Part shown: piece by piece, positions 24,741-63,468 of the stretch
Layout of the letters: every line of letters begins with the position of its first letter
Numbering within the stretch: the stretch's first letter is position 1
Assembly (NCBI GenBank): GCA_964187785.1
Contig: OZ076409.1
Span: 30,382,001-30,446,000, forward strand
DNA from: Amphiscolops sp. MND2022
Lineage: Eukaryota
DNA: 64,000 nucleotides
Direction of reading: 5' to 3'
Program-made: the position numbers and the translations under genes
The notes under the pieces: generated by a model
The model's database searches: none
What the model was told of the DNA's origin: nothing
Seen by the model: only the letters and a program-made list of their open reading frames with translations

Positions 24741-27700
24741 ATGTCTTCACACTTATGTTGGTCTGGATCTTACTTTTGAACTAATATAACTTGATCAAGG
24801 TCAAATTTTGTTCATAAGCGTTTCCTGTTTCCTTCTGCTTAGGTGAACAGAATACTGAGAATCTACTAGCACCAGAAAATACTGACGTCTCTTTTGTTCC
24901 GACTGCTGATCTCAACCTGATGACTCAACCAATGAGGCCAAACCCAACAATCAACAGGAAGTAGGGACGTCGATGTCACAATGATTGCTGATGATATGGT
25001 CACCATTATGGAAAAAACAGAAGCCGCTGCCTCAAGATCTTCAGAATGATTTGATCAGGGGAGATCTACACGAGAAGCCCCAACACGTTCTCAATGTCGA
25101 GAACTTGATCATACCACTTCCTTAGTACAATCAAGTACGCCTTTTTTGTAACCTGGTAACCTGCTGGCACCCAAACTAACCTCTCAGCCCTGGAATCTGG
25201 ACTACGGATAGCAGAGTTGTCCAGGACCCCGCTACAGGAGCTGATGCCCATATCGGACTCCTCCGCTGAAGCGTCAGTTGCAACAGTTTTGCAACAAGAG
25301 GTTGACACCGCTTCGTCAAATCATGATGATCCCCCACTGCCACGTTTAGGCGATAAAGGTAAATTCCTTGTTGACCCCAGCGAGAACTGGAGGACCGGGG
25401 ACGAGAAAAGCCTCCCTCACTGCCCTCTTTTCTATTCTGAAATTCCCCGGTGTTCAGATTCAGGCACAGAGGGTGGAGACGAATTTGGTTTTGACCCCTT
25501 CCCGCGTGACCCAGCAGGGCCATCAACCTCAACTGTTCGACGTCCGGATGCCATGATGCATGAACTCTCAGGGCGGAGCAGAGCCCTTTTGAAAGAAAAA
25601 TTTGAGAAGACAAAGCCCTTCGCGCTCCCCATGGGCCATCCTACTTTGGCATTCACAGAGTCACAGATAAACAACTTGCTCGACAACGAGACCATGAGCC
25701 TCACTTATTTGACCTTTGAGCGAATGATTTTGGATGCTTTGAAAGTAACCGCCGCAACGGCTCAGTCCAGAACTGACGACTTCAAGTCTGAGGCAAGAAC
25801 GCAAACACCAATGCGCAGAGTAGACAGCGATTCGAGTTTTGCCTCTCATACTGACAGTGAGGTAATCAGTCAACCAGAACTGGAAGTTGGCCCAAGAGAT
25901 GTGACCAGCTGTGGAGATAGTGATGGGAGCACTGAAATGTCCTTAATTTCTGAATCATTTTGGAAATCCACCGCCATTGATGCTGTCCTTGTAAAGACCA
26001 CTACCTCTGCTTGTCGCGTGTCTTCAGAAGGATTCGAGTCCTCGAGACCTACCAGCCAGGATGTAAACCTTTCCGAGATTCCAGAAAGAAGACAAGACGA
26101 AAAGTGCCTGGGAGAACCAAGGTCCAAAATATCAAAAAAGACCAGGAGAACACCACAGCGCATTAAAACAATTGAAACAATGGGCACAATGGAGATATCA
26201 AGACACCATCGTACTGAAAAGCACCTGCGACGAGACCAGCGGTGTGTGTATGAGCACCTCAAGTCAACCGACCACATTACTGGAAAAGTGCAACATCAGG
26301 TCAGGGGGCGAAATGGTAAACTCCTCTCCAAAATCCTACTAGCAAAAGAGATACCCCAATTCATCCACATGGAGTTGGTGGATATAGAGGAAAGGATTCC
26401 TTTTTACGAGGATTTCGTTCGAGGGCACGCCTCAGCAATCGTCACTCCGGAGTCAAGAGCTGAAACTCAATTGAGCATCATTAGAGACTTCATCAAGACT
26501 TACGGAGCTTTCACCGTACTTGGCAACCTCTTGGGCCGCATCGATTCCTTTACAGACTTCCAAGCCCCTCTCTGTGACTTAGACTGGGGAGATAAAAAAC
26601 TCACCGTAAGTATCATCTGTATAAGTATCCAGCTGACAGATTTATAAGGTTTTAAGTATCTGTTTTGCTTAGGCGATTTTCCAGCATTTCTTCGCAATGG
26701 CAATGGAGGATGTCGCTGAAAAGGTCGCAGTTGAGCAGTGCTTCGCTGTAGAATTTGAGGACGTGATGACTTTCCGATACATGTCTGTTCGATTCTGGAA
26801 AGACAAGGACCTTTCCGGACTTTCGTTTGCCGAAGTGAGCTGCCAACCTCAGATCTAACCGGAGAGCTGGTTCTCTGGCCAGGCTGTTTTCAGTTACTTC
26901 CACTAACGCAGATTTAGTCCCCTGCTCCGGATGTCCAGTCACATTGATCCAAACCGTCAATAAGTCAGCCTTCTTTTCTTGAGGTGTACAGTGCTACTTT
27001 AGGTTTGAAAATTTAAAGCTTGCAACATTAATGCACAACCCTAGTTACAGTGTGTTTGGAAGGATTGATTTTTTCTGTCCGCGAAGCCTTGATGGTCTCC
27101 TTGTGCGGATCTCTTACTGAGGACTGGGTACCTATTCTGCCTGAGCACTTGGAAAGTGAGGAGTCATAGGAATCATTGAATTAGTTAACAATAATTGATA
27201 TTATTTAGGCCATTAGCAGCTGCTGCAAGTTTGTCATCTCCACCTTGCCTATACTCTGCCGGGAGCTGATAACCGAGTGGAAGTTTGTATTGAACTACTT
27301 GACAGTACACGCCCCTAGGCAAGAAGGACAGGGAGAACTCAGCCGGGTAAGATACTGCTTTGTCATGTTCCTCGATTCAATCACAGTCATTCACCTAGGC
27401 TCATGTCCTAGCTAAGATTATAAGAATTACTGGCAATTGCATTTGGGTTTTTCTTTCAGGTCCAAAGTTACAAGTGGTCCTTAATATGTGATGAATTTTT
27501 TGTCGCCAAGCTCGATTTCTTCCGCATTATTGTCAGTGACTGTTAGTATCAACACGGTGCTTTAAATTTCGATTCATGTACCCGTCTAGGATAGCATCTT
27601 TCTTTGTTTGTATATGTCGCAAGTTTCCATGCTAATCTCCAATCTAGACGAAACGCCTCCTTTTACCTCTGTGGTGAGATCAGCAAGTTTGTCCACAAAC

Positions 27701-28750
27701 TTTGCGTCCGATGCTACTCCAGCGACACAGTGCCTTTAGAGAATGCCTAGTTCTTGCTCCTAGGTTTCAAATCCACAGACGGCGTTTACATGGATGATAT
27801 TTTTGCTCCGACAGAAATTGACTTACAAAGTTACTATGGCAAGCAAAAGTAAGTCAGAAGGTATTCACAGTTGGAGAAGGGTAGATCAGACTACCATAAA
27901 GAAGACTGTAGACAATTTAAAAAAAGGGTTTGCTTCCGAGGGACTCCGATTTCTCAACTACCTCATCGAGAAGGTATTGCTGCAGCCAGGATTTGATTCA
28001 GACCTTAATAAAGGCTTGGCTTCTTTTGATTCCCTAGTCCTTTTCAAATGACGTACAGAAGTTGCCTTGCGACCTTTCGAGCATTTATACACCACCTTCC
28101 AATTACGGTCATGGGTCATGAAAGATGAAGAGTCCGAATACCGCGATGAGTATCTGCAGCTAATCGAACACCTCCAAACAACGTATCCTCCTGGTTTCAA
28201 TATAGAAGACGTCTCCCCGGATCTGATCTGTTCCCTTATGAGACTTGAGTTCTTCGTGCATCTCTACTATTTGTTTGAGCTTTGCTGCTTTTGCAACACT
28301 GTCCCTAGTCCAAGTTACCCTGCTCTTGCTATAATCAACAGTACTACCTACAATTCTGATGATCGATTCACGGAGGTTATTCTGTCAGGCCAGAGTTACA
28401 TGGCTGGTGTACCTGATTCCGTCACTCACTGCTGTAATGAGACCAACATGGCTACGTTTTCCCTCTTGTCCACAGACTTCGCCGATGACTACGATCCCTG
28501 GACTTTCGTTGATGCTTTTGGGCGGCCTCAAATTTACAAAACTTTGCTATGCTCCTGTATAAAACAGTTATGGTTGGGCCAAAAGTACGTTCCTCTCACA
28601 GTTGAGCTCCAAAGACCCCGAGTGTATCGGGTAACCCAGCCGTGTCTGTACCTAGTAGATCTAAGAGGGGACAATCAGGCAGTAGTGTTTCTGGATTGAC
28701 CAGTTCATCCGTAGTCAGCCTTTGTGCCCCAGCAATTTCTAAAGATTAAC
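24741..28750 (+). pseudogene. Antisense multi-exon accessory gene of element C
   Basis: ORF 25217-26605 retains ISRHHRTEKHLRRDQR, with the CxxC half of the finger deleted. A phase-0 intron GTAAGT...TTGCTTAG at 26606-26672 leads into AIFQHFFAMAMEDVAEKV...CFAVEFE. ORFs 27794 and 28067 (HLYYLFELCC, YDPW) are homologous to 49045-50077. Confidence 0.8.
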
Positions 28751-42947: not shown

Positions 42948-45292
42948 TGTTACGACTTACCTTCGTGTCAAGGTCGTAAATTTTGAGGAGAGTTGATTCG
43001 TACTGTTTTCGTCGGGGTGAGGAAGCTTTTTTCATTTTCCGTTTCATCTACCGTGTTATTTCGTTCATTTTCTCCTGTTTCAGAGCTCAGAAGCTTCAAA
43101 ATTTCTGTTTGAGATTCTAAGAGGATTTTTTTAAATCTCAGAAGTAATTTCTTCCTTCAAGGAGTCTCTCAAACTCTCCAAGGAGCTATTTTCTATCCTA
43201 GGGGACTTTGGTCTTGACGGACCTGCTACGTCTATATCCAGATTTGATGAACTCGAGTTCTCCATATCTATTGGTGAAATGAAACCTTCACTTACGATGT
43301 CTTCAGCATCTCGCTGAGTGTTTTTTTGGGTTCTTGTTGTTGACATATTGATGAAGAAAGTTTGGATTGAAGAATTCAATTTTATTATTCAAGATTTTTC
43401 AACAAGGTTTAGTTGGATTGAAATAGATGCAAATGAGATTTAGAAAAGACTGAGTCCCTTAATCATCAAATCCTATCATATATATTTATACCCTCCCAGC
43501 ATCATATGATCACGACTAGAACCCTAATTTTCCTCGAACAGTTAGTCATTTCCTGTTTCATGGATGCAAAAATCACGAAGATCCCAAATTTGCGACAACA
43601 ACTCGTCAAATTTTAAGACACGACGGTTTTATTCTAGCATCAGTCATCGACCATGATCATATCATTTCATCCCGGCGTCCTTTTGCTTCCTCCCAAGCAG
43701 GAAGTAGATATTACTTGAAACTGTCACACCGGAAATGCTTCCCTGTTTTACTGCTTTGGTTCGCGGGAAATTGACGCTGAGATGACACTGACGTGAACAA
43801 CTAATACCTGATTTTGAAATTCAGCATGAGGAAAATATGACTAATTTCAAAATCATGATTACTTGAGCGGTGCTAGGAACGATAATTTTATGAATTTGGA
43901 CTCTTTCTTTTCGTTAGGAATAAAATTAGGATTACGATATTAAAACATTCATTAACAACATTTTGGCCTTGTCGCGACAAATGCGACAAGTTGGCAACGT
44001 AACTTTAACAACATGAAACTTTAAATACAGCAACATAATATTAGTACATTCTGGTGTTAATAACTGTGCTCACAGAACAATGGTAAATGTTGTACAAAAC
44101 CAGGTCAATAAAAATCAATGGATAGCGAATACTGGTCCTCAAGCATTTGGTTTACAAAAATACTACGGGTATTAAAATACATTCATTTCTCTGTTCACAA
44201 GGGCATAAACTGTGACCTTTATGATTAGTGGATAACAAAATCCCAATTAAAGTTCATTTCTCACTGTAATTTTAGGTGTACGATATTTTAAATGACGAGC
44301 CACTGACGCAGATTCGTTAGGACACAATCTTTTAATTAAGATCGTAATAAAATGTGTATTTCCTCCGTATTAGTTTCATTTAGATGAGAAATCCATTTTC
44401 CTATCCTGGAAAAGTTAAACAACTGAAATTGGTAAGTTTTGACATCGTTTTGGCGTAGTTTTCTTAACTCCATCGAGCGGATTTGTCTAATTCCTCTAAT
44501 TTCATGAACTTGTCGTCGTCACTAGGACGCATTTTCTTGGCATAACTAAGTTCTGCCAAGTTTCCCGCATCGTTGACGCATATTTTAGGACAAGTATTCA
44601 GTTAGTTACCAGTATCGTGACGTCAAGTTGGCGGAAAATTCTACTGAGGCCTTTAATAAAGGCGGTTGATTGGAACGATTTTCTGGTAAGCATATGCGAG
44701 GTACTGACGTCACACGATATCTCTTCAAAACTTGTCTACGCCTTGTTGACGACAAACGTACAGGTATACTTATTTCTACTGCTGTTTTGTTTACTTAGCG
44801 CAGTGCCGTCGTTCTAATCCGCATTAATTGCCGTTCAAAGTGCAATTAGGTTATCTTTCTTAGAAAAGGCTAAATCTCTTCTGCGTGCCATCTCAATGTA
44901 TTTTCTATTTTAGATCTGATTAATGTTACTTTTGGAGATGATTTTGGAGATGTTTTCATTTAGATTAGTATATGCTCTCTTTGTTTTAAAGCATGTTTAG
45001 ATTTAGTTTTCAGGTGGCGAATGTTACTATTTTGACGTGACTCAAACGTCTTACCGTAAATGTGTGAGAACATTTTAGCTCATTTCATTCTCTATCTTCT
45101 TTTTTCATTTTGAAAGTTGCGCGAAGCGGACGTATGTTTCCGTATTTACAGTCACAGTTTATTTTAGTATTAGTTCGAGAGTTTTAAGGTAATATCCAAA
45201 ATACCACCTGGGGAATCTCAGACTACACCCGTGCCCTCTTCCGATTCCCACTCGTTTGCAGTGACAGTCCAGACCGGGAGCGGGCTGTGACA
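42948..45292 (-). repeat. 3' LTR of element D (2345 bp)
   Basis: Collinear with 56649-59047, with scattered substitutions and indels. Confidence 0.95.
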
Positions 45293-45907
45293 GGGCCACT
45301 CCTCTGGGGAAAGCACTTCTCCAGGGTTGTCGTGGCATGAACGTCAATGGAGTTAGTCTCGACTCAAGGTCTTCTGAGCCACCAATGCTGCGTTTCTCTT
45401 CGAGATCGTTCAAGGGGTTTGCGGGATTAAAACTGATCTTGCCGGGGGTTCCCGGCGGTGTAATAAAATAAGAGGCAGAGTCTTCTTGTTATAAAAGTAT
45501 TCCGCCACCCTGCTGCTCGTTTTTGATTCTGCATTATCTGGCGATTCTTCTACGACAAATACGTCGGAACACATGCTCTCGTCAGGGCTTTCCGGGCTGT
45601 CTGGCAAGTCTTCATTCTGTCTTTCTGTGGGATTCTTTTGTGGGGCGTACGTCTCCGGCTCAATCGATTCTAGGCTAGAGTTAAGCCTCAACTTTTTGCA
45701 GCTTGACTCGAGGGAGTCCGTCGAAATGTCGAAACATTCCTCTTCGTCTGCTGTAGCTTCGGCCGATGAATGGGACACTTGTAGTATTACCCTGTAGCTA
45801 GGGATAATTTCACGAGGAAGGGGCGTAGAGGCGCGTTCCAGAGTTCTTTCCTCATCCTCGCTTGAAGAGATGTCTATAAGCTCCTAGACGTTTTTGAGGC
45901 TATTCAT
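45159..45907 (-). pseudogene. Acidic Ser/Glu-rich sense ORF3 of element D, running into the 3' LTR
   Basis: MNSLKNV*ELIDISSSEDEERTLERASTP... continues as ORF 45410-45778 and then 45159-45413. Confidence 0.5.
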
Positions 45908-46379
45908 TTTTTGTTGCTTTTGCTGATTCATAGGCTGCAGAGCTGCTGAATTTCACTTGTTGATTGTTCCACAATAAATTTAGGATTAATTGGGATTAAG
46001 GAGACTATGGGACAAATCCTTCCATTCTGATTGGTTAATCAATCTTTTTAATCCTTTTATTCTGCAAGTGTTGACGTTATGTGGACATCGCATTTTTATT
46101 GGCTGCAAATTGGGATAGTTCACTTAGCCAAACTTGTCAACGTTTCGCTGACGTCACTTTCGGTAGCTTAGCTAACTTTTAGAATTTGTGACCGTTATGA
46201 TGACGTCATTGTAGGTTACAGGATTAGTTTCTTAACCCTAATAACCTTTTTGTCGACGTTATGCCGACGTCAATTTCGTTGGTAATTGCCAACTTTATGT
46301 TTCGTCACCGTTATGATGACGTCAGTTTCGGGTGTTTTCCATCTGTAGTTTTGTTTTTCAGATTTCCTGTCACTTTGCA

Positions 46380-49300
46380 ATGAATCGCAATTTTCCTCCT
46401 GTTCGTCATGACGCTGGCGCGCAGAGTGGGAACGAAACTCAATATCTGTTTTCGGAAGCAGATGTTTGAGACAGCGAGACTGACCTTTTCAGTCGACCAG
46501 TACTTGGTAAGCTTGTTTTCCCCCTGTCCTTTAAGTTTTTCTGAATTATACCGTTAGCAGTTAGGCCTTTCCTGTCTTGGTATTTCCACAGCTTAGATTT
46601 TCTTGACTCGTCGATGTAGGGGTTTGTTTTAGCTGCTGTTTCTACATCTTCTCCTGTCTCTGGTCCTTCCGCTCCTGGGATGGTCTTTCTTCCGGCAGAT
46701 CTTTCCGACATTGGAGTTGTTCCTCTTGAAACTCCAGTTGTTCCTGAGGATGGTGCGTTTGCTTTGGCAGTCGATTCTGTTGTTGACAAGCCTGTGGTTT
46801 CCCAAGATGAGGACCTTGATGTTCCTTTGGCCACCCTGGATAACAATCTTGTGGCAGGAGTCTCGCCACGTGAGGTTGGACGCGGTGGAGACGAGATCGT
46901 TGGAGTCACAGAGACTCATGTAGGTGAGGCTCCTCCCCGGCCTTCGAGAAAGAGAAAGGAGGAGAGGGACAGAAAGACGATGTTCCTGTCGCAGGTGTGA
47001 ACCAAGCTGAGTCTCCTCGATTTTGTTCATACCTCCCCGACTTTGAGCGGACATTTGGGAGTCGCAATAACTCTCCTACTGTTAGGCGCGGTTAGTTGTA
47101 CCTGCGTTTCCTTCTCTGTCTTGTTATATCTTCTTTCTTTGTTTCGCTCTTTCCTTCATTTCTACTGAGGGGGGAGGGGGGTCTGGTGAATGGAGTTTTG
47201 CAGGTGGTTGATAGTGTTTGTATTATTTTAGTGCATTTAGTCACTTCTGGAGAAGAATCGTCATCCAAGCGACGTCGGGTTCAGTTCGAGCCTCCACTTG
47301 CTCCTGCGCGGGATATTACTTTCAGTGTTGTAAGCACTGATGAAGAAGCAGCTTGTACTCCTGTGTTGCCTTGTACTCCTCAGCAAGCTGTGAGACTGGG
47401 AGAGGTGGTTGCATCTGAATTGGAGAGTCGGACTGTGGAACCCTTTGTTGTTCGTGAGTTCTCTTTTAATCTTCGTTGGCCTTGTTGTTGGGTGCGTTTC
47501 GTTGTTGAAGTTTTATCGGGGGGTTTATCCGTTTTGGTACTGGGATAATTTCGAGTGATTGTTGTAGGTTTCCAAGAGCTTGTGAGTCGTGTGGAGGCAA
47601 GTCTTGAAGAAGCAAGGACGCAACACCGGCAGCGTACGAGGGTCTATAGTTCACGAAATTGACCTCGGCGAGACATGCTCGAAGATAACCCGATTTTTGA
47701 GCTATTTGTGAGTGGTTCCAGTCCTGGCAGCGATAAGCACTTCTACTGCATGATATGTCATCGCGATGTGTCTATGGAGTCCCATGGTGCTGGTGAGTTC
47801 AGTCGTCACTTCTTTGGGAAGCGGCATTGGTTGCTGGACATTACCTACCGGGTCCAGAATAATATGCCCACATACAACCGCCTGATGGACCCTATGGAAT
47901 TGAGTGCAGCGAAGATCAACGAGTATATGAAACGTCCTCGCAAAGGGAAAGCTGAAGGCTGTACTCAGGTTGATTCATCTATTCCTCTAATGACACTGAT
48001 AAACTGTTTGTTGGAGCTCCTTCGCAGTGGTGGCAACTACACCCTTTTAAGGAAATTGTGGGGCTGTTTTCGGGCAATGCTGGGACCCGAAGATCTCTTG
48101 TTCATTTTGAATTCGAGCCGCCCAGAATCCTTGATTAGTGTGTTCTTTTGATTGTTTGGGGGGAAGGCGAAGAAGAAAAGAGAAAAAAATTGTCATTTTT
48201 GGGTGTAATTGTGTGGTGGTGATTGGGGTGGGGTGAAAACTGGCACCTAATTGTACTTGTTTTGTTTGTTTTAGTCGCTCATCTGTCAAGCATTGTTCCC
48301 TCGAGCATTGCGTTCTCTTGTTGCAAAAGTTTCTGCCTTCCGGGATTACAGCATGTTCTTCATTGACGATAGCGAGACGCATAGTTGTATTGTGCAGACA
48401 TGGGACGAACATGAGTTGTTTTGTGTATCCGTGCATGTTGAAGCATCTGGTTAGTGTGTCCCCATTGCAGAGGTGGCTGGCTTATCCCGCGTTGTGGATA
48501 GTTTGGCGTCATGTCAGTTGCCCGTGTCTTGTCAAGGAGGAAGCCCGGCCTTGTTACGTGTTCTCAGTGAGAACCGTATTGATGGTCGTCAATTTGTGCA
48601 CTACGAGACATTTTCTGAGGTAGTCTTCTTGCGTTGTTACCGAGAAGCTCATCAGGAAACCTTCGGGATGCTCGAAGTGACTTCAAAAGTCAACTTCTTG
48701 ATGTTGCGGTTGCGCGGAGCCTTGCAAGAGTCTTGGATGACCGATGTGCCAACTCTTCGTCGTTGTGTTGTCGCCGGCCGAGTGTCATTTGTTGATCTGC
48801 GTGGAGTCGTCGCTGAGTTGATTCCTATTTGGAAGACAGTTCGGGAGTATATGTGCTTCACTGGTTCTCCACATCTCAAGAGTTCAACTGACAGGGTAAG
48901 TTGTGTTGGCTGCTTTGTTTTCTCGTTTTTCCTTTTCTTAAGATATTTGGCCGGATTTCTTTCCTGTTGCCGGTAAGGGATTCTAGTGGGGGGGGTATCC
49001 TTTTTGGTTTCCCTGTGGGTTATGATGTGTTATTTTTGTTTTAGATGCGTGGCATAGACTGGATGGTCTACAGTGAGAATACGAATATTCTTCGTCTCGG
49101 GCTGCTTGACCATGTACTTGCTCTCTGTGAGTCATCAGTTTGTATTGCGTCTTTTTGTTTTGGGTCTATCAGGTGTTGTTATTCATCGCCGTATTTAGAT
49201 GCAGTGTGTTTCACGAAACAACAGACTGGCAGGAGTGATTACAGCTTTCACTCGTATATGGAGTTGTGTCAGTTTGTTTATTGTTTGCTTTCACGGAGTT

Positions 49301-50445
49301 GCAAAGTGCCATCATTGCCTGATCTCAATTCGTGGGAAGCTTTTATGGACGTCTCAAAGATAGCTTCCTTTGACTCTGTTTCATCAGCCGAGTTTTTGCA
49401 GAATTATGACTTTGGATCAACTGTGTGTCAGTTCAAGGGTGGCAAGGGCCCTGATTTCTTGGAACGTTGTCGGGAGTTTTTCGATCGTCTCGTGCAATTG
49501 ATTTTGGCGCAACCCTGCGTCTCTGCCGACTCTATGTGTGGACTGTACTGTTTCTGTCCCGGGTTGTTAATGGAAGGCGATGATAAGCACGTTTTTGATC
49601 TTTTCCGGAAATTAGTTCGAGTGCTGGAACGTAACAGTGCGATTTCTGATATTGAATCGAGCTGTGCTGTTGAAGAGTTCCTGACTTACGTGGTTGACGC
49701 CCGTTCTCGACATGTCAAAATCCAACCAAAGCGCTGAGGAGGTTGAAGATGTCGTGGCTCATCTTTTGGCGGACTACAGTTTCCTTGCTCGTAAGAATTT
49801 GTGCCGGGTCTTCAAAGTATGTTGTCTTGTTGCAGTGAAGCCTCGGGGAAACTTTCCTGCAGTAGAGATTGATCTCAGTGACTGCGAGGTTCCCAAATTG
49901 ACTGTGTTGTCTTGTATTCGTGGCGTGCAGAGTTGCGTGTTATCGGCCATTTATAAGCAGAAGTCGTTCTTCACGAAGCATACTATGGATCGAGTCCGGG
50001 ATGCTGTGTCAAAAGCGCGCAATTTTATGTCTTTGTCGTCTTTCAATCCATGGGAGAGGATTTGCGGAGATGGGTAGGGAGTGTTCGTGTCTCGTTACAT
50101 GAAGCTGTCCAATGACTATGTTGCCCTTCAGAAAGGAGATTCTTATGAGCGTCTTCGTTCTGCGAATAAGCGTGACCGTAAATTGCAGTCTGCCGGTGGC
50201 GATTCTTCGACATTGTCGTGTTCTGGGAGTGCTTTATCCTCAGTTGTCGGACACCCGTTTCTGGAGTTGAGGGAGGATCTGCTGCTGGGCCTTCCAATAG
50301 TCGACGCCTCCATAGCCGTATAGGATCATTGCTTGGTCGATCGCGGAGTGAGAAGAAGAATGATGGAACAACTACCGTAGTTGATAAGAAGAAGTCAAAC
50401 AACTCTGCCTCGAAAAAAACTGTTTCTGAATCCATAGGAAAATAA
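46380..50445 (+). pseudogene. Antisense spliced accessory gene of element D: BED/hAT-like zinc-finger protein
   Basis: ATG at 46380. Phase-compatible introns at 46507-46632, 46924-47240, 47454-47567, 48134-48274 (donor mutated to ATTAGT), 48896-49044 and 49127-49198. The finger reads FYCMICHRDVSMESHGAGEFSRHFFGKRH. A few stops and frameshifts remain. Confidence 0.85.
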
Positions 50446-50699
50446 ACTCTGTCGCATTGGACTCATCTTTAGTTGTATTTTAGTCCATTTGTAAAATGAT
50501 TTATTGTAGTCAGATTGTTACTGTCCATTTGGTCTTTGTGATTGTGATTTATGGATGCTATTAGTTTCAGAACAGTTCGGAAAAAAGGATATTGTTTCTC
50601 CTCAGTGAAGTTACGCTAGTGCAGCCTTCGGGAAAAGAAGACAACAAAAAAATCCAAGTGTATGAAGGAGTTGTAGAATACTCTTTAATTGAAAAATCG

Positions 50700-53600
50700 T
50701 CAGATCGGTTCGGTCTGGACTCCTGATAATCTATTTTCATATTGAGCCGTAGTCATAGCGTCAAGTCGTCTAAAGTCAGGGTTTGCGTTAGTTTTAGGAT
50801 TAGGTCGCAGGTTACAATTCGCTGTTTTCCTCGGATTATATCCAACAACTGTAGGCGGTGGACTTGGTGGAATAGGTGGACTTTCAGTGGGTGGGGGCCG
50901 ACGTGTATATGGATTATCTCCCACGTCTGTAGTAGGGTTTGAAAATTCCGGAGACGGCGGCGCCACGTCATTTGTGACTTCGATGTAATTTCAAGGCATT
51001 TGTGGCGTCGTGTCTTCGTCATTCCTATTTGTCACTTCTTGTATTTCTACGTGTTGGTTTTTTTCTGTACTTTTTGATGTTTTGTGTTCACCAATCTGCT
51101 TTCCAAAATCCATTTCCCATGATACCGCGTACCACTCATTGTGCGACACCTTAACGCCTGGATCGGGAAGATATTCGTTTGCTCGTACTGTGACGTCAGG
51201 CATGCGTTGTTCTGGCACGTATGGGCGTATTCGAATTCTATGTAGCGTCTGTGTTTATCTCGTGCCAAGTTTTCGTATTGTTAAGTTGTTATTTGATAGT
51301 ACTTTTATCACGATATACGGTCTTGTCCAGATGCAATCTTGGAACGCAAACTTTGTCCATTGGTTGTCAGCTTTCGGGTTGAGAATATAGCAGTAGTCGT
51401 TTACTTTGAGCGGAGCCGCCGACGCTTTGCGGTCGTAATGTTTTTTGTATTTGAGGTAAGACAGCATGATATTGTCCTTTGACGTTGCTCGCACTTCGTC
51501 AATTTGTTTTTGTAGTTGCTCTGCTATATCCGAGTTAGGCGTTGTTTTCCACTTTGGCTTGATGCCTAACTTTAGGTCTAGAACGTTGTAGGGTATGCGT
51601 CGGTGGAATACTGTAGATGGTTCACAACCTACGGTTTCATGATACGTTGTATTGTATTTCATGACTGCGATTTGGACGTATTTGTGCCACATTGAGCGTC
51701 TTTCACCCGTCGATATTTTTGGTACAGTTTTGATTGAAGCGTGCGTTCTTTGTAGAATTCCAATCGTTTGTGCATGCTTTGTAGACGCGTAGCTAATTTG
51801 GAATTCGAGTATTTGCGTTATTTCTGCGACAATTTCTGACCTGAATTGTGAGCCTTTATCTGACAAGAATAAGGTTGGTAGACATGCATGTCTTGTCATG
51901 ACGTCTACAATGCATCGTCCAATTGTTTTCGCTGTGACGGTCTGCGTTGGATATGCAAATAAATAACGTGAGAACACATCGATCATTGTGAAAATGTTCT
52001 GATATCCTGCAGAGTTTGGTAGATTCGGCAGTATGTCGATTTCGAGTATGTCTTCCGGTCCCAATACGTGTTCTGTATTGGTGATCCTTTACGGGCGGAT
52101 TTGGCTGTTGTTGATTCCTTTGTACTTGATGCAATCTTCGCAATGCAATACCCATTGTTTGACTTTTTTTGCTAATCCAGGGTAGTAATATTTCGATCTG
52201 CATTCTTGGATCATTTTGGTGACTCCTGGAGATGCTTTCCCATTTGTCCGTGGATGGCTCTCAGCAGTCCTGTGATCAGGTGTTCGGGGATTAATATTTG
52301 GTGATGTGGGACTTGTCCACATTCCCCGTAGTATTTTCGCATTAGGATTCCGTCTTTGACTATTAGCCTATTTTCGTGGACTAAGAGGCGTTTAGTTTTC
52401 GGGTCTATTTGTAGGAGATGTCTATCATATTCTTCAAAGATAAATTTTCTTTTGATTGCCTTGAAGACCAAATCTGAGTCTTGTTCAACTCTGATGAGTG
52501 CGTCTTCTTTGATTGCCCCAAAGGTGTATGATGCCTTGTTTATTGGGATTGGGGTAGTTTCTTTGATTGATAGTTTTATTTTTGCCATCTCTTCGTCACG
52601 TGCATTTTGCCTCGCTCGTTCCTTCTGCAGGAGGATCTCTTACTGTGGATTGTAGGTTTACTTGTATTGGTTGGGTCGTAATGTCGTTCCTGATTTTTAG
52701 TTCGACTCTTCCCTTATGGTTGAGGTCAATTCTCGATAGGAAATCAGCTGCGATGTTTTGCGTCCCCGCCACGTGCATGATGTGAAAATTGAATTGCAGT
52801 ACGTAGTCACATGCATTCCATAGTGTAGGGGAAAGCGCTTTTGTTTGGACAAACCTCGTTACTGATCTGTTGTCAGTCATTACAAGAGTTGGTAGGGTTG
52901 TTTCCCACAATATGTGGCTGTATTCTAAGAATGCGTGATAGATTGCCAGAAATTCTTTGCAACAAAGTGACAGCATCAGTTGTGCTGGTGAGAATACTTT
53001 TGATCCAAATGCTACAGGAGCAAAAGATATCTTTTTGGAATTGAGTTTTTGTCGTTCTCTTCTTCGATCATTAGCGCATATCCCGAGGCGCGAAAACTAG
53101 AGTCTGTCATTAGGACGTATTGTCGTCCTGTGATTTGTTCTTTGAGAGCCAATCCGCATGCCTGCGCCAGCGCTGCGTTGATCGCTTTGTAGTTATTTAG
53201 CAATTCCTCTGTGACCTTGATTTGTTTGTCTGCTTAGAGTAGCTCGTAGAAACCGAGTAGTTTTTCTGACAACCGCGGAATATAGTTGCGGTAGCAGTTG
53301 ACAAAGCCTATGTATCTTTGTACCTGTTTCTTTGAATTCGGGAATCGTTGGTAGGGTTTGCTAAGAATTTCTGGATTTTGTGGTCTTGGGGGCGATTGCT
53401 TGTGGGGTGATCGTTCTTCCAAGGAATTCGACCTCGGTCACTCCAAAATGGCATTTGTCGATTTTTAGTTTAAGTCCTGCTTGTCTGATGCATTCAAACA
53501 CAGCTCGGATGTTTCGGATCAGTTGCGTCATGGAGTTGGCAGCTATTCCAATATCGTCTAGATATTGCGCGCACTGGTCAACTTTGATTACTTTATCCAG

Positions 53601-56600
53601 ATATTCTCTCATGAAGCTTGAAAATGCTGACAAAGCTCTGCTTAGTCCTTGTGCCAGTCGTTTGTATGCGAAGGTTCTGCCTGCAAAGTTGAACGCTAGC
53701 ATTTCGATGGATCTTTGATCCGCCATTTGTAGGCAGTGATATGCCTGAGAGCAATCTAATTTACAGAACATTTTTTTCAGCTAGGTGTTGGGCTGCGTCT
53801 GACAGGGTGCTGACTGGACGATTGTTGTTGATGTAGTCGTCAGATTTCAGTGCGTTGATTTTTCGTAGGTCGACAAGTAGACGTAGTTTACCATTTGGTT
53901 TACGTTGTGCGAAAATCGGGCTGGCATATTTTGAAAATGGTAATGTCGTGATTATGCCATACCTATGCATGAGCGCTAGTTCGACTGTTAGGTCTTCTTT
54001 CAGGTTGACTGGTACTGGTAGGCTCTGTGTATACATGGGGCGTTCGTCTTTTGGCGTCAGTTACACTTTGAAGCTGTTGTTGATGCCAATGTCAAGTCTG
54101 TGACGCGCAAAAATGTCGTTGTATTCAACAATCGTTTGCTCAAGTTGTTTTCTGTCATTTCCCTCAATCTGCGATCCTTCCCATTTGAACATGTCGAGGA
54201 ACTCTTTCCTTCATTCTGGATCTTTGGTGGGGTCGAGTTGTTTTTTCTTTATAAGTTCTCTGATTTCTTTTAATATTAGCCGTTGTATCGGCGTGTGTTC
54301 ATCTTCGTTTCCCGGGTTTTCGGGTGTTAGGAACCAGAGCTTTTCGTCGTTTTGTTCGTTATTTGTGGATTTCATGAGCTCATTTACATACATGTGCGTG
54401 TCATCTGGGTCTTGTAGCGTGGTTAGTGTTGCAACATCTATGGGTCGTATCTGTTTGTTATCCTCTGGCTTAAGGATTTGCAATTCTGCCAGTTTGGTAT
54501 GGTTTTTTATGGTGTGAGGGAAATCTGTCAAGTTGGCTATTCGGAGGTTGATACAATTGTTATGAGCTGTGGCCAGTGCTTGTGCAACGATGATGGTGGC
54601 TGTTTCATCAAACTATGGTAGCGGTTGTACTACGCCTGTGATGTCGGTTGCATTGGTGGTAATGACTTTTGCATTTACTGTTGTTGTTTGTTGTGGTAGC
54701 AGCGTCTGATTTCCTTCGGCCATGATTTGGAGCGGTTTGGGGTTACATTTTTTCTTTTCGTCCTGTTATGGCTAATGTCATTTCAACGTGTGGGAAGGTG
54801 ATGGTCCCGTTGGCAGTATCTATCACTGCTTGGTGGTTTCTCATGAAATTCAGATTATGGGGAATGACGTCTTTGATAGGATGACAAAGGTGTCGGTGAA
54901 CGTGTATGTTCCATATTGAATTGAATATCAGCAGTGGCAATAGGTTGTTCTGGTTGGGCGTTTGCGCATTCGATCTTGAAAGGAGGTTGTGGGTATTACT
55001 TTATCACGCAATTGTCACTGTTCATTTTAATGGCGTTGTAATCAGACCATGACATGGCGTTGATGAACGCTCCTGAGTCAACGAGGCCGTCCATGATTAT
55101 TTCGCCGAATTCGAGTGGCAAATACAGCATTCGTCTTCTGTTCTTGAGGACTATAGTCGAGTGCAGAGGTATGTAGGTATCCCCATCTTTTTCGGTTATG
55201 TATTCTTTGATCGAATTAAGTGAGGTGGGGATTTCGTCGTGTAAGATAGATAACCTTGTGGGGCCGTGGGTATTTGCTTCTTTCGTTTGTGGCGGTGGGT
55301 GGTCGTCGGTGACATTTTCATTTTGGTCTATTTGGGTTGTAGCTGTTTGTTCTTTGGTGGGGCAAGGGAATTGTACGATGGGGTTTGCATTACGTGTACG
55401 GTCGTCTCTGTAGTCTTTGTCTTGAGTGTAGGTTTCTTCCCTTTCTGGTTGTGGTATTGGTCTTCTTTTTGAGGCGAGTGCTTGTTGTCTCAACCAGTCC
55501 TCTGTTGGAGTGCCGACGCACTCTATTGTTGAGTAATCTGTGTAAGTAGTGGGGGGATCTTTTGGTGGGTCTATTACGCAGGCGCCCGAAAGGCAGGCGC
55601 GACGTAAATAGTTTTTTGATTCGTCTCCGAAATTGGTTGTCGATTGTTGGGTGGAAGTTTCCGTGTTCCTTTTTCTTTGGAAGTGTCGTTTAGGTCTCGG
55701 ATCGTTTGCCGAGTTGGCTCCATTCCAGCAATCTTCCGTTTTGTGAGGTTTTCCGCATGTATCACATTTAAGTGTGGTGCCTGCGTTATTTTTACTTTGG
55801 CCGTTGTTTTTCCTTGTCTGTTGCCATTTATCCCTTCTCAGTTTTTGACATTCTGCTTTGAAGTGGCCAATTTTATTGCAGTAGAAGCAGTATCTTTTTT
55901 GGTGTTCTGTGTCGTGTTCTCGACTTGTTTTGCCTCTTGTTTTGTTTGGGCAGGTTCTATTTTTTTTGAGTGGTACCAGAGTCACTTCATCTGGCGCTCC
56001 AAGGCCGTTGAGTCGCATTTCCCGCTCCAAATGGAGTACTATATCATTGTATGGTTTGTCCTCAAGATACGCCCTGTTGAGGATTTTCTTTACATGATCT
56101 GGCATTTTCGCGTAGATTGCTTTGTCAATAAACTGTTGAGCTTCCGAACCGAAAGCCTCTTTCGCCATTTTTGGAGTACGTCCAGAAATTCATGTAGTTT
56201 TTGTGTTGCAGGATCAAATTTGAGTGAGTCCCACTCGCATCTGGCTTTTGCCATTGACAGATAATCTCCAAATCGACGTTTAAAAATTGTCACTATTTCG
56301 TCTAACGAGTCCTTCTTGGAGTCTTCAATGTTGCCGAACGCCTGGAGGGCGTCTCCTCTTAGCAACGATTGAAAGTAGTTGATTTTTGTGGTTCCGTGAG
56401 GTGCGGATACATTTTTATGTTGTTACGAAACAAGTCTTCAAAAAGGTCGAATTTGTCGGATTTCCCATCGAAAGTTGGGAGTGATGCCGTTAAAACTTTT
56501 GGCATGGGTAGTGTGGTGGAGTCAGTCTTTTCTGCTCGGAATAGTGTTCTGGCCACCGTTGGGCGTTCTTTTGCCGCTGGTTGACCCTGGGACCTTATTT

Positions 56601-56649
56601 TCGTCGTCTTTGGGTGGTTTGTGGAGTCGGTTAGGACTCCTGTCACCAT
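50700..56649 (-). pseudogene. gag-pol of element D
   Basis: Knuckles CFYCNKIGHFKAEC and CDTCGKPHKTEDC, protease LVDSGA, RT QYLDDIGIA, RNase H LMTDSSF/KEFLAIY/TDN, integrase HHCC plus D,D(35)E (E>Q) and a GPY-like WTRPY. There are multiple frameshifts. Confidence 0.96.
56636..56648 (-). promoter_or_regulatory. Primer binding site of element D (tRNA-Leu-like)
   Basis: TGGTGACAGGAGT follows the LTR terminal CA directly. It is one mismatch from the tRNA-Leu-type PBS TGGTGTCAGGAGT. Confidence 0.7.
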
Positions 56650-59047
56650 GTTACGACTTACATTCGTGTCTCAGGGTCGTTTTTTTGTGTAGAGTTGATT
56701 CGTACTGTTTTCGTCGGGGTGTGGAAACTCCTTGTTTCATTTTCCGTTTCATCTACCGTGTTATTTCTTATATTTTCCCCTGTTTCAGATCTCAGAAGCT
56801 TCAACATTTCTCTTTGAGATTCTAGGAGGAGATTTCTAATCTCAGAAGTAATTTCTTCCTTCAAGGAAGCTCTCAAACTCTCAAGGAGCTATTTTTTATC
56901 CTAAGGGACTTTGGTCTTGAGGGACCTGTTACGTCTATATCCTGATTTGAAGAACGCGAGTTCTCCATGTTTATTGGTGAAATGAAACCTTCACTTACGA
57001 TGTCTTCAGCATCTCGCTGAGTGTTTTTCCTTTTTTGGCTTCTTGTCGTTGACATTTTGATGAAGAAAGTTTGGATTGAAGAATTCAATTTTATCTTTCA
57101 AGATTTTTCAACAAAGTTGAGTTGGATTGAAAATAGATGCAAATGAGTTAAATAGCTACTGGTTTCTGCAATTTAGAAAAGACTGAGTCCCTTAATCATC
57201 AAATCTTATCATATTTATACCCTTCCAGCATCATTTGACGACAACTAGAACCCTAATTTTCCTCAAACAAATAGTCATTTCCTGTTCATCAATGAAAAAA
57301 TCACGAAGATCCCAAAATTGCGACAGCAACTCGTCAATTTTAAGACACGACGATTTTATTCTAGCATTAGTCAACGACCATGATCAAATCATTTCATCCC
57401 GGCGTCCCTTTGCTTCACCCCAAGCAGGAAGTAGATATTTTTTCAGTCTGTCAAACCGGAAATGCTTCCCTGTTTTACTGCTTTGGTTCGCGGGAAATTG
57501 ACGCTGCGATGGCGCTGACGTGAACAACTAACACCTGATTTTGAAATTCAGCATGAGAAAAATATGACTAATTTCCAAATCATTATTTTTGAGCGATGCT
57601 AGGAACGATACTTTTATGAAATTGTACTCTTTCTTTTCGTTAGGAATAAAATTAGGATTACGATATTAACATTCATTAACAACATTTTGGCCTTGTCGCA
57701 ACAAATTCGACAAGTTGGCAACGTAACTTTAACAACATGAAACTTTAAATACAGCAACATAATATTAGTACATTCTGGTGTTAATAACTGCGCTCACAGA
57801 ACAATGGTGAATGTTGTACAAAACCAGCTCAATATGAATCAGTGGATAGCGAATACTGGTCCTCAAGCATTTGGTTTACAAATATGCTCCGGGTATAAAA
57901 ATACATTCATTTTTCTATTCTCAAGGGCATAAACTGTGACCTTTATGATTAGTGTATAACAAAATCCCAATTAAAGTTCATTTCTTACTGTAAGTTTAGG
58001 TGTACGATATTTTAAATGACGAGCAACTGACGCAGATTCGTTAGGCCACAATCTTTTAATTAAGATTTTAATAAAAAGTGTATTTCCTCCGTATTAGTTT
58101 CATTTAGATGAGAAATCCGTTTTCCTATCCTGGAAAAGTTAAACAACTGAAATTGGTAAATTTTGACATCGTTTTGGCGTAGTTTCCTTAACTCAATCGA
58201 GCGGATTTGTCTAATTCCTCTAATTTCATGAACTTGTCGTCGTCACTAGGACGCATTTTCTTGGCATAACTAAGTTCTGCCAAGTTTCCCGCATCGTTGA
58301 CGCATATTTTAGGACAAGTATTCAGTTAGTTACCAGTATCGTGACGTCACGTTGGCGGAAAATTGGAATGATTTCTACTAAGGCCTTTAATATAGGCGGT
58401 TAAATGGAATGTTTTTCTGGTAAGCATATGCGAGGAAGTGACGTCACACGATATCTCTTCAAAACTTGTCTACGCCTTGTTGACGACAAACGTACATGTA
58501 TACTTATTTCTACTGCTATTTTGTTTACTTAGCGCAGTGCTGACGTTCTAATCCGCATTAATTGCCGTTCAAAGTGCAATTAAGTTATCTTTCTTAGAAA
58601 AGGCCAAATCTCTTCTGCGTGCCATCTCAATGTATTTTCTATTTTAGATCTGATTGATGTTCCTTTTGGAGATGATTTTGGAGATGTTTTCATTTAGATT
58701 AGCATATGCTCTCTTTGTTTTAAAGCATGTTTAGATTTAGTTTTCAGGTGGCGAATGTTACTATTTTGACGTGACTGAAACGTCTTACCGTAAATGTGTG
58801 AGAACATTTTAGCTCATTTCATTCTCTATCTTCATTTTTCATTTTGAAAGTTGCGCGAAGCGGACGTATGTTTCCGTATTTACAGTCACAGTTTATTTTA
58901 GTATTAGTTCGAGAGTTTTAAGGTACTACCTTACCTTATATTAGTAATATCCAAAATACCACCTGGGGAATCTCAGACTACACCCGTGCCCTATTACGAT
59001 TCCCACTCGTTTGCGGTGACAGTCCAGACCGGGAGCGGGCTGTGACA
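56649..59047 (-). repeat. 5' LTR of element D (2399 bp), including the Gag leader from 57054
   Basis: Direct repeat of 42948-45292. Minus-strand TATAAATA lies at ~57212-57219, and the ORF MSTTRSQKRKNTQRD... reaches the LTR edge. Confidence 0.95.
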
Positions 59048-59759: not shown

Positions 59760-62700
59760 ATGGGTATCGAAGCTGGTCTGCAGTGCGATGATGATGGGTC
59801 CCCTGCATCCAGTATGCCTGCAGGCTTCCGCGAGAAGGACTATTATGACGGCGATGATGACACTTAGCAACAGGAGCGATGATGACAATGGTGACGGTGT
59901 ATCCGTGTACTCATATGTTAGTGATGCCAGACACACACTCGACTATTTACAAGAACGACAGATTAGGCTTTCCAGATATTTGTTTTTGATCAGTTAACAA
60001 TTTTGATCCTAACGTTCGGACGCCTCCTGTCCAGTTTCTGGTTGTTTGTTGAGGTCGCAGTGAGGATTCAAAAAATGAACGTTTTGTTCCTGGTAGCTCT
60101 TCAAAGACACCCACTGTTCACCGCAGCAAACGTCTGCATTCGAAACGCCAGGAAGTTTCTGCAAAGCGCACACTCGGTCCGTTGGTTTGGACGAATCAGG
60201 GGATGAAAGTGAATCCGAGGGTTTTCTGAGCGACTGCCTGAAACCATTAGGTATTCTTTCTTGTCTCGGTGCTCTGTTTTTTGCCTATGTCATGAGTGTG
60301 TTGGGTATTGTTCCAGACGTTTCTCCTGCCTTGCCTTGTGGGAACATGCTTCAAGATCTGGGGCTTGGTTCCGGCAGTGATGTCGTGGAGACGCACATTC
60401 CTGGTGGAGATGCTTTGGATTGAATCCCGTTCAGACTCATGAACGTAGCCGAAGGCGAACCCAGCATAAACGTCCCACAGAAGGGTCGGAGCGTTCTGTC
60501 TTGCTCAAAGGTTATTAATTGTTTTATCGTTTTCAAAAGTGGTTTATAATCATGGGTAACCGTCTGTTTTGCACAATTGATTTCTTATTACACGGTCACC
60601 GCCTTCTTCCAGCTGAATTGTCTGATGACCCTACTGGTTCTGTGTGTATGTCGTCGGCTCAGGCTTTTGTATTCGGTTAAGCTGCAGTTCGCCTGGAGAG
60701 GAGTCATTCCGGGCTCCTGGAGCAATCCTTGTCTCGCCGTAAGTGTTGAAATTTGTTACATTGTCTTTTTTCGTTGTATTTCGTGTTTTTGTTTCTCATT
60801 TGCCTTTTTGTTCTGCAGAATCGATCCTTGTCGTGTTTTTTGTTATGACGGTTTGTGTGTGCTGCAGGGACTGACGAGATGCGAGCTCTCTTGAAGAGTA
60901 AAGGCATCAGAATTTACTGCTCTCAGTCGTCTGTTGATATAGTGGAAGTGGTTAAGATCAAGCTGTATGCGAACTATGAGAAACGCAGGAGAAGGCAGAC
61001 AAAGAGGCATATTGTGATGAAAAAGATGGCAGAGCATCTGTTACGGCAGCCATTCGTTAGCCAGCGGTCCGACAAGATCCCTAATGCCTTCAAAAGCGCC
61101 ATTTGTCGAGATTTTTCTGAGTCGAGTCGAGGCGAACCAGACACTTAGCTGCATTATGGCAGTAAAATCTGTTTTCTGAAGAACCGGCGTTACTGACTAG
61201 ATCTAGAAGATGTCATCTACACCGCACGGTTTAAATAAGTTAAATAAGTTGATGTTCCCTCAATTTCAACTGAGCTGCACGCTGAAATGGAACAGGCTCC
61301 TGCAGTTGTCCTTGAAAAGAGGAATCCTTTTAAGGGGGATGAAGTCGATACTCGTGAGCGTATGTTCAAATGTGCTATCTTCCATACTTGTTGGCGGGCT
61401 GTTCCAGTTGCTTCGGAGTGGTGTGTCTCATAGTATCTTGAGACGCTTATGGAATCAGTTTCGCATCTCATTACAAGATGAGACGAATTATGTCCAGGCT
61501 ACGTCGAGGAAGATGGAAACGTTAGTCATCGTGAGTCAGACGCTCTATTCACGTCTTTTGCGCCGAGTTCAAAACTGGTGTAAAAACTTGTTCTTCAGTA
61601 TCAACTTCCGCGATGACGGCGATGGAGTTTGCTGTTCGTGGCGGTGTTTGTCAGCTAGTGCCCTTCGTGTAGTGTGCGTCTTTTGGGAGACGTTTTCTGC
61701 TGGCATCTGTGATGACGCGGGTCCTTGCTTTGCTCTCTCCTGGATAATCTCACGCGTCTCTCTTGCGTTGCTCCTGTCCATTCAACGTGTTTAGCGTTCG
61801 GCTTGAAGAGCATGAGGTGCCAGTGCCCCTGTTTATTGTGGAGTGTTCACCAGAGTCTTCTCAAGAGCATGTGAGTGGGGCTGGGTCAATCAGGGCCCAT
61901 TCTTTGGATGCTTTCCGCCGTACTGAAATACCTGTTGCTGGCGACTCACTAAGACAATCAACCAACCGTGGATATTGAATTTGGCTACTCTGCGTACTTG
62001 TGTACAGCGGCATCCGATCATGTTCGAGTCTTTTCTTTGTGTGATGTATTGGATGAGTTGGTTCGTCGTTGGGACAATATAAGGTTGTTTTCGAAAGAAA
62101 GTGGAGCTGTGCCCGCGCCCCGAGCAAAAAATTCAATTGATAGTCGCTGATACCTATGTCCTGCCGCGGCTCGGTCTTCTGTTTCGGACAACAGCCTGAA
62201 ACCAGTGCTACAAACTACAATGTCACGCCGATTTTTTTTACTGCAGCCTCTTGTGCAAGATAGTTGTTCGAACAATGCTTATGTGTACAGTTTAACTTCA
62301 GTATCACACACGTGCACTATAGTGTAACCTTCAGAATAACGCACATATTTTGTGCCCCCGTGTTTGGTTTTCATCATTTGGTCTTTTTCGCTTATAACAC
62401 ACACTTCAGAATAACATACTTGAGCGTTTTCTCCCAACGAGGTGTGTAATACTGAAGTTAAACTGTAGTTTCTCAGGAACGAGCCGGTTGTCGCGTTAGC
62501 TCTGGGCAACCGTGGGGATGCTGTCCGTCATAGTTTCCTTCGCGAAGGTCATAGCTTCCTGATGGAGTTCCTGAATGTTTTGAACTTCTCTCGTTTTTCA
62601 AATTCGCGTCTGCTATCATGACTGAGCTGCTTTTCCCTGATATTCTCTTACAAGCTGGCGAAGTATATACTGTTTCATTATTTCGGGATTTAACTGCTTG

Positions 62701-63468
62701 TCTTCAAGAGTGTGGGCGTCTTTTGTGGATCGTCGGCGTCGGAATCAGCGAGTCATCTCGACTGTTAAGGCTAACTTCGCTTTCTGGCATCAGACGGAGT
62801 TCTTGGGTTGTCGAAGTTGCTTGACTCAGGTAGTGCAGCTTATTTCTGTCGCGGTGGTATCTCGGGGCGCTAGTTATCCTGCTGTAGATATTTAGGTGAG
62901 CGGTTGTGCCCCGGAATATTTTGACTTCCTCAATTCTTGCTGTGCAGTCATACATTTCCCATGGTAGTTTTTTCTCTGGATAGTTACTCACAGAGAGGAT
63001 TTGTCTAAAGGAATTGAAGGTGAAATTGCCCGCTGACAAGGCGTTTATGGAGGATGCGTCGTTCACGCGTTGGAGGCCATTGTACGAGCATGGACGCAAG
63101 GATTTTTACCAGGGTCTGCGTAACAAATTCAATACCTACTATCTGGAGCAGGTTTCTGAGAGCGGAAAAGTGCAGGCTTGAGCGTTTTTGTTGGTCTTGG
63201 GTCACCATCCAAGTCTCAGAACGCAACTGATCCGCTTTCTCATGGTCTTCCTCCAGTTGTTTTCATGCGGCCGCTTCTGTGTCTCAGTCTCTTGTTGTCG
63301 AGGGTTCATGCGAGATATCTGTGCTTTCATACTGTTCCAGTCGGTCTTGTGATATCACCCGAGTTCTGGAGGAGAAGAGAACAACCCGGAGGGGTAAAGG
63401 TTCGACCAGTACCACAAGGGGGAGTTGGGCCACTTGTTCAAGAATGCGCGGGACGAAAAAATAGTTGA
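59760..63468 (+). pseudogene. Antisense accessory gene of element E, heavily decayed
   Basis: PFVSQRSDKIPNAFKSAICRDFSESSRGEPDT*LHYGSK is a finger homologue. LFQLLRSGVSHSILRRLWNQFR matches LLELLRSGGNYTLLRKLWGCFR of element D, and FPDILLQAGEVYTVSLFRDL matches CPGLLMEGDDKHVFDLFRKL. Confidence 0.75.

Follow-up and report, generated by a model that had tools for sequence, protein, structure and literature searches.

Plant Ty3/gypsy retrotransposons can carry an antisense open reading frame (ORF) between pol and the 3' long terminal repeat (LTR), the aORF-3R, as in maize Grande (gene23), rice RIRE2 and Retand, whose antisense ORF bears the Pfam domain Transposase_28 (TRP28, PF04195). According to two reports (PMC7264820, PMC11963269), these ORFs are kept in nearly all copies of a lineage, their products are nuclear or predicted DNA binders and presumed nuclear regulators, an own antisense promoter has been shown for Grande, and their function and most of their origins are given as unknown. 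Among animals, bdelloid LTR retrotransposons have captured foreign domains as extra ORFs in the region between pol and the 3' LTR (env, DEDDy, GDSL; PMC5408684), and PMC5718144 likewise describes captured domains in bdelloid elements. Here we describe an antisense gene at the same place and in the same orientation in a 16.1-kb Gypsy-type element of Amphiscolops sp. MND2022, found in a 64,000-nucleotide stretch (positions 30,382,001-30,446,000 of contig OZ076409.1, from an assembly of 1.07 Gb), which we call the window.

Like the plant aORF-3R, this locus has between pol and the 3' LTR an antisense ORF that is conserved. It differs in its cargo, which is predicted to be a nearly full-length DDE (Asp-Asp-Glu) transposase fold with a zinc finger (about 730 amino acids in the conserved part), and in being split by introns in three of four families; Pfam found no match to TRP28 (PF04195) in the aligned exon relatives or in 12 proteins of the fourth family. 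The cargo also differs from that of the bdelloid elements, and the word 'Transposase' occurs nowhere in PMC5408684. Our literature search, which was judged by titles and abstract beginnings and left Repbase, subscription journals and supplements outside its scope, returned no description of a hAT-derived gene in an LTR element. We consider it reasonably probable that this conserved gene encodes a Hermes-like fold devoid of the cutting residues, which serves as a DNA-binding regulator keeping the copies of its own element transcribed.

Host genomes have domesticated hAT genes, such as ZBED, ZMYM and GTF2IRD2, and DNA transposons encode the VANC anti-silencing proteins, which evolve fast with their targets. 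The gene described here would resemble both as a transposase-derived or element-encoded DNA-binding regulator. The domesticator would in this case be another mobile element, in contrast to the host-domesticated genes; VANC, for its part, belongs to DNA transposons and has no sequence relationship to this gene.

A conserved antisense gene inherited with its element

The gene is encoded by the plus strand, in tail-to-tail orientation to pol, and extends from about 46380 to about 50445 in seven predicted exons:

about 46380-46506, 46633-47090 and 47232-47453, plus strand: predicted exons 1-3, an acidic Ser/Thr/Pro-rich N-terminal part, broken (splice-like flanks and tblastn)
47568..48133, plus strand: exon A, basic stretch, C2H2 finger and helical region (comparison with relatives)
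48275..48895, plus strand: exon B, predicted RNase H-like strands 1-4 and the start of a helical insertion (model and comparison)
49045..49126, plus strand: exon C, 27 codons of the helical insertion (comparison)
49199..50445, plus strand: exon D, helical insertion, C-terminal RNase H helix and basic low-complexity tail (ORF and model)

Searches of the own genome returned at least 132 scored matches of 7100 candidates with exon D as query, at least 151 from 4280 candidates with the window's copy at 28 kb, and at least 150 of 1121 candidates with the copy at 61 kb, all of which are lower bounds and not copy numbers. The matches fall into at least four families. Among 59 loci examined, 48 have an integrase match, 52 an exon-D match and 46 both, and exon D is opposite to the integrase strand in every one of these 46. 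In family 4, a single open frame of 870-927 amino acids spans exons A to D, and it is also opposite to the integrase in 12 of 12 loci, which were chosen for long frames. The exons follow the same order throughout, and this fixed antisense place bears out the original prediction of a gene captured by a retrotransposon. A more distant Gypsy element (L271:5421-8785) has weak matches to exons A, B and D in order, opposite its integrase, and may represent a fifth family.

The antisense gene is inherited together with the integrase at the family level. Trees of integrase and of exon D, the latter made by FastTree only and with long branches, show the same three clades (22, 18 and 6 rows), and the identities of the two are correlated (0.83 over 1035 non-independent pairs). 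Exon D is nevertheless far more divergent: members of one family have a median identity of 91-95% in integrase but of 47-58% in exon D, and between families, of which three were compared, the values are 52-72% and 19-31%, respectively.

This divergence accumulates under purifying selection. The median dN/dS (nonsynonymous to synonymous substitution rate, Nei-Gojobori method) in family 1 is 0.064 for exon A (23 of 325 pairs usable), 0.129 for exon B (94 of 528) and 0.146 for exon D (147 of 780); in family 2, it is 0.053 for exon A (3 of 91) and 0.100 for exon D (29 of 406), and none of the 15 pairs of family 3 was usable. These values come from stop-free exons, which biases them downwards, and from non-independent pairs; most pairs were dropped because their silent sites are saturated, which weakens the case for selection. 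Other frames give 0.9-7.3. The opposite frame that shares third positions gives 0.07-0.24, above the gene's own frame every time, so that the gene is not the shadow of a sense ORF. A chance frame is rejected as well, by the 132, 151 and 150 genome matches (lower bounds) together with the selection acting in frame.

The window holds four copies of the gene, one from each family. Besides the copy listed above, which we call the window copy, decayed copies from families 2, 3 and 4 (one each) lie at 25160-28700 (plus strand), 1-2700 (minus strand) and 60900-63200 (plus strand). The motifs that the original prediction had assembled into one protein all exist in the window, and they are divided among these copies: YSMFFIDD (48347) and RKNLCRVF (49790) are in the window copy, and FAVEFED (26742), HLYYLFELCC (28259), YAIEFER (824, minus strand) and FSINFRDD (61594) are in the three others. 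Elsewhere, we observe tandem duplications of the gene inside single loci and one exon-D frame that runs straight into a pol fragment (L003/L004, L161, L046). The family-4 copy of the window contains a miniature inverted-repeat transposable element (MITE; 62286-62467), which measures about 182 bp and ends in near-perfect terminal inverted repeats of 20 bp; it is young and abundant, given 40 other scored matches at 98-100% identity.

Outside this genome, a search of representative proteins returned 1344 proteins at E≤0.001, the best 150 of which are of single-exon length; ten representative clusters that we checked are unnamed, with members nearly all found in ENA only. A metagenome scan gave 327 pattern matches, none of them confirmed, and a word-index search found no longer relatives of exon D among 5721 candidates.

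Predicted fold

We modelled exons B-D of a relative, L008 (85% DNA identity), with in-frame introns read through and X placed at stops. The AlphaFold (AF2) model predicts an RNase H-like core, with strands at residues 26-32, 35-44, 47-57 and 85-87 and a helix at 539-554, interrupted by a long helical insertion as in hAT transposases. When compared with 48,161 chains by VIA-align, Hermes is the top match (Z 11.4, root-mean-square deviation 5.6, 300 residues aligned) and the only chain with Z≥8; the alignment covers model residues 1-560 and Hermes residues 152-609 and extends from the helix preceding strand 1 to the C-terminal helix. The next matches are Tn5 (Z 6.0), ISCth4 (5.4) and the P element (5.1), with retroviral integrases at 5-6. 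Helical proteins can reach such Z values by chance, but in this case the next-best chains are DDE enzymes whose alignments extend from strand 1 to the final helix. A second structural comparison gives Z 11.4-14.1 for six Hermes entries, with 7-9% identity between the model and Hermes, and in Foldseek, Hermes chains occupy ranks 1-11 (E 0.07-0.5). The order of finger, helical domain, RNase H strands, insertion and C-terminal helix is predicted to be that of hAT transposases (Hermes, PDB 8edg, 4d1q and 2bw3), which the protein also resembles in its structural Z of 11-14 and in a conserved Trp.

Several results weigh against a hAT assignment. The L008 model rests on a 26-row alignment and on read-through introns, and its mean predicted local distance difference test (pLDDT) is 60.8; all Foldseek E-values are ≥0.07, none significant; Hermes is the sole hAT among the structural results, which limits how closely the subgroup and the register can be assigned. 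Nothing near the cut-off was found for Pfam hAT families in the window pieces or in sets of 33, 38, 36 and 12 aligned relatives, and Dimer_Tnp_hAT (PF05699) in particular matched none of 33 exon-D rows and none of 12 family-4 proteins. A PDB sequence search with four profiles gave nothing relevant. The comparison by hhalign with 91 Tip-type hATs reached a probability of 0.5-3.7% (P 0.01-0.11); weak as they are, these alignments place strand 1 and the C-terminal region in the register that a hAT would show. The exon-block profile scored 27 against the Tip template, 16 against the reversed template and 17.6-34.6 against 20 block-shuffled templates, one of which beat the true template, so the match is not significant. 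Our profiles had no match under E 0.05 among 3928 hAT-locus frames of the own genome and 111 hAT proteins, and no donor was found.

Other predictions give leads only: ESM Atlas features point to Dimer_Tnp_hAT clusters for exon D (0.82) and to Spin-doc/BED finger clusters for exon A (0.83-0.85), all below the Atlas mark of 0.9. A homodimer prediction for family-4 residues 25-440 was uninformative (score 0.00, with the subunit fold itself uncertain). The part of the original prediction that called the protein a hAT derivative is upheld by the RNase H-like match to Hermes, which the proposed AlphaFold and Foldseek check returned, but not by homology at the sequence level, which is not significant in any search. 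Taking the fold together with the catalytic positions described below, we regard it as very probable that the protein is hAT-derived and catalytically dead.

The genome contains many hAT elements, with at least 150 scored PF05699 matches, among which many frames of 69 and 59 amino acids recur with the same score. With PF14291, the own genome gave no match, a result that is uninformative. Ordinary Ac-type and Tip-type hAT transposases with long ORFs and recognizable catalytic motifs occur at L207-L212 and L214, and these have no detectable relation to the antisense gene. We also observe a 7-kb unit, 99% identical in two places, in which an Ac-type hAT C-terminal fragment lies near a Gypsy-like integrase of another kind (L230:6065-6522, L232).

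Catalytic positions

Five residues are key in Hermes: D180, D248, R318, W319 and E572, according to PMC6027215. We placed the equivalent positions by secondary structure, by motif and by one weak hhalign alignment. The CxxH motif is another feature of hATs; all 91 Tip-type controls have it without exception, as they do the first Asp and the Glu.

At the column matched by hhalign to the first Asp (D180), Asp is found in none of 36 rows and Glu in 19, and family 4 has Arg in 12 of 12 rows. For the second Asp (D248), the equivalent residue directly precedes a conserved Gly in strand 4; it is Asp in 0 of 36 and 0 of 12 rows, and 3 of 36 rows have an Asp anywhere in positions 83-91. The helix that should carry the Glu (E572; positions 238-247) has one Glu among 31 rows; it is free of acids in the family of the window copy, and so is the helix core of family 4 (12 rows). 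The second-Asp and Glu sites themselves hold no acids. The His of CxxH is replaced by Phe in 36 of 36 rows and by Tyr in 12 of 12 family-4 rows. The Trp at the TRW-like place persists in 28 of 30 ungapped rows and in 12 of 12 family-4 rows, and the Arg before it is absent.

Some acids do remain close by. The register at the first Asp is uncertain by about two residues, and an Asp or Glu is found one residue beyond the matched column in 20 of 36 rows, and also in 11 of 12 family-4 rows, which weighs against a firm reading of this site. In families 2 and 3, strand 1 still has acids, with Glu at position 28 in 18 of 36 rows and at position 30 in 19 of 36, and 18 of 31 rows have an Asp or Glu one helical turn ahead of the Glu position.

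The alignments support the absence of the second Asp, the Glu and CxxH, and suggest that the first Asp is not conserved, in agreement with the altered catalytic site predicted originally. Compared with hAT transposases, the antisense gene lacks the equivalents of D248, R318, E572 and CxxH, apparently does not conserve that of D180, has neither terminal inverted repeats (TIRs) nor a Pfam hAT match, and resides inside a class I element. The scaffold of the protein is predicted to be hAT-like, yet the protein does not belong among the active hAT transposases.

Exon structure and decay of the window copy

Splicing was judged by comparison among relatives. In the 22 relatives of family 1, the donor after exon A is canonical in all 19 that could be mapped, the acceptor of exon B in 21 of 22 and that of exon C in 22 of 22. 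The exon joins are confirmed by the intron-free ORF of family 4, which aligns across them (710 columns, probability 100, 29% identity to the exon-block profile); close to each of the three joins, the alignment has a gap of one or two columns. Exons 1-3, which are 71-83% identical to frames of the relatives in tblastn, are probably spliced as well, judging by their flanks.

Most intron positions are common to families 1-3, although some differ among them, one subgroup of family 2 has no intron before exon C, and family 4 (L273-L284) has none of the A-D introns. As read from these alignments, the differences represent intron gain or loss within an antisense gene of a retrotransposon. The introns may be able to persist because they are on the strand opposite to the replicated genomic RNA.

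The window copy itself is dead. Exon A has a 10-codon deletion and a destroyed splice donor, exon B an in-frame stop (48452-48454), and exon D frameshifts near 49730 and 50255 and a premature stop (50075-50077), in addition to the broken upstream exons. That stop had been taken for the end of the gene, and its supposed beginning, 47675, is an internal Met, so the limits 47675..50077 are replaced by those listed above. Over the first half of exon D, dN is 0.069 and dS 0.115 against the nearest relative, a ratio consistent with recent decay; against a more distant relative, dN is 0.06 and dS 0.54.

The host element

The element and its other features, all but the palindromes on the minus strand, are as follows:

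42948..59047, minus strand: LTR retrotransposon of complete length with decayed coding regions (LTR pair and target duplication)
56649..59047, minus strand: 5' LTR, TG...CA, holding the gag start (sequence)
50753..57097, minus strand: gag-pol in pieces, with zinc knuckle, reverse transcriptase (RT), RNase H and integrase (ORFs and Pfam)
46149..46324, no strand: three TGACGTCA palindromes upstream of the antisense gene, a candidate promoter by position
45410..45883, minus strand: sense-strand ORF with an acidic product, placed between the 3' LTR and the antisense gene and oriented head to head with the latter (ORF)
42948..45292, minus strand: 3' LTR (LTR pair alignment)

The LTRs, of about 2.35-2.40 kb, start with TG and end with CA, are 5.4% diverged (127 substitutions in 2333 aligned columns; 91.5% alike with gaps counted), and the same 5-bp target duplication is found at both flanks of the element. 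The TGG-starting sequence after the 5' LTR is probably a primer-binding site. Pfam recognizes RVT_1 (9.5e-20), RT_RNaseH (1.2e-9), rve (2.1e-10) and zf-CCHC (0.0012), and the order RT-RNase H-integrase is that of Gypsy; LTRs, target duplication, primer-binding-site-like sequence and domain order are all those of a Ty3/Gypsy element. The unit is bounded by LTRs and a 5-bp duplication instead of hAT-type TIRs and an 8-bp duplication, and none of 28 short inverted pairs at 45294-50800 of the window copy brackets the antisense gene. Neither flanking TIRs nor an intact DDE triad, which together would have pointed to a hAT transposon, are thus seen.

The gag frame begins inside the LTR, so both LTRs carry its first few hundred bases (56649-57100 and 42948-43400), as they do in L167 and L168. 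Relatives of the acidic sense-strand ORF occur as frames of 256-276 amino acids in L166, L171 and L173, and the ORF measures about 250-310 amino acids in relatives overall (L166, L171, L173, L167, L176). The TGACGTCA palindrome, which is CRE-like (cAMP response element), is present in 2-4 copies at the same place in most family-1 loci that reach that far.

Possible roles of the antisense protein

What the protein retains is its core fold with the helical domain, the finger and a basic stretch; a long acidic region of low complexity lies ahead of these. From these features, our tentative first choice for its role, just short of an even chance, is that of a family-specific DNA-binding activator or anti-silencing factor, ranked ahead of an integration cofactor and of an RNA-binding factor. 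This choice is favored because the protein changes per lineage far faster than the integrase and is still under selection; fast lineage-specific change is what would be expected of a sequence-specific factor. Most probably, an ancestral element captured a hAT transposase gene once, long ago, into the region between pol and the 3' LTR. TIRs and catalysis would then have been lost, and the gene retained as an accessory. A promoter of its own, adjacent to the 3' LTR, would drive its transcription and so yield a protein that enters the nucleus via its basic stretches, uses the finger and the helical domain to bind the DNA of the element, and activates or de-silences the element through its acidic N-terminal part.

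With the same origin, the protein might instead bind the ends of the complementary DNA or chromatin and steer or assist the integrase. Transposase scaffolds do bind DNA ends, the gene travels with the integrase at the family level, and the whole core fold is kept beyond the finger alone. We nonetheless find such a cofactor unlikely, as the gene would be read from a separate antisense transcript, outside the polyprotein, and diverges far faster than its presumed partner.

The finger bears on another role, that of an RNA binder, for instance in Rev-type export or in the protection of unspliced genomic RNA. Located at 47747-47827, it has 27 residues with the spacing C-x2-C-x16-H-x5-H (x16 replacing the x18 first reported) and a local pLDDT of 84-95 in its predicted fold. 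No Foldseek match at E≤0.001 was found for this fold, and the best Z is 4.4. The best structural matches, which count against DNA binding, are RNA-associated fingers of the U1/matrin type, in TUT4, TUT1 and SF3a, at a weak Z of 4.0-4.4, and Pfam SF3a60_Prp9_C appears in 4 of 38 relatives at E 0.17. This likeness is equalled by that to BED fingers, all of it weak (zf-BED in 2 of 38 relatives at E 0.096; BED structures in Foldseek at E 3.3 and 6.4); BED is a candidate identity for the finger. An LTR element of C. elegans is reported to encode an export factor (PMC10309623). The finger matches are at background level, and the remainder of the protein is predicted to be a DNA-transposase fold, which makes RNA binding quite doubtful.

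If the protein came from a DDE transposase other than hAT, likewise with a helical insertion (Mutator, P, Transib or a superfamily without a solved structure), this would account for the lack of sequence support for hAT and for the 7-9% identity to Hermes. We consider this improbable, given that Tn5, ISCth4 and the P element score far below Hermes, that the match to Hermes, 300 residues in all, begins at the helix ahead of strand 1 and reaches the C-terminal helix, and that the Trp is conserved at the TRW-like place. Least probable is a passively nested hAT DNA transposon, or a transposase that is still active by means of an unusual catalytic site: the abundance of hAT elements in the genome and the acids kept in families 2 and 3 would allow it, but these acids are not common to all families, no TIR brackets the gene in the window copy, and its place and orientation are fixed in four families with a frame under selection, on which grounds we reject a nested transposon.

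Our preferred reading is that of a regulator derived from a hAT transposase. The antisense cargo would then have a recognizable source, a predicted class II transposase fold, which selection has maintained in four or more families of a class I lineage that has been very successful. At somewhat less than even odds, the dead transposase may have become a permanent accessory gene whose product recognizes DNA motifs specific to its family and thereby activates, shields or targets that family. One class of mobile elements would thus have domesticated the enzyme of another, as hosts do. The intron-free family 4 provides a natural full-length protein (for example L276:2804-5002) for binding and structure tests. 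If the reading is true, the unexplained antisense ORFs of Gypsy elements would gain a traceable origin and a testable function.

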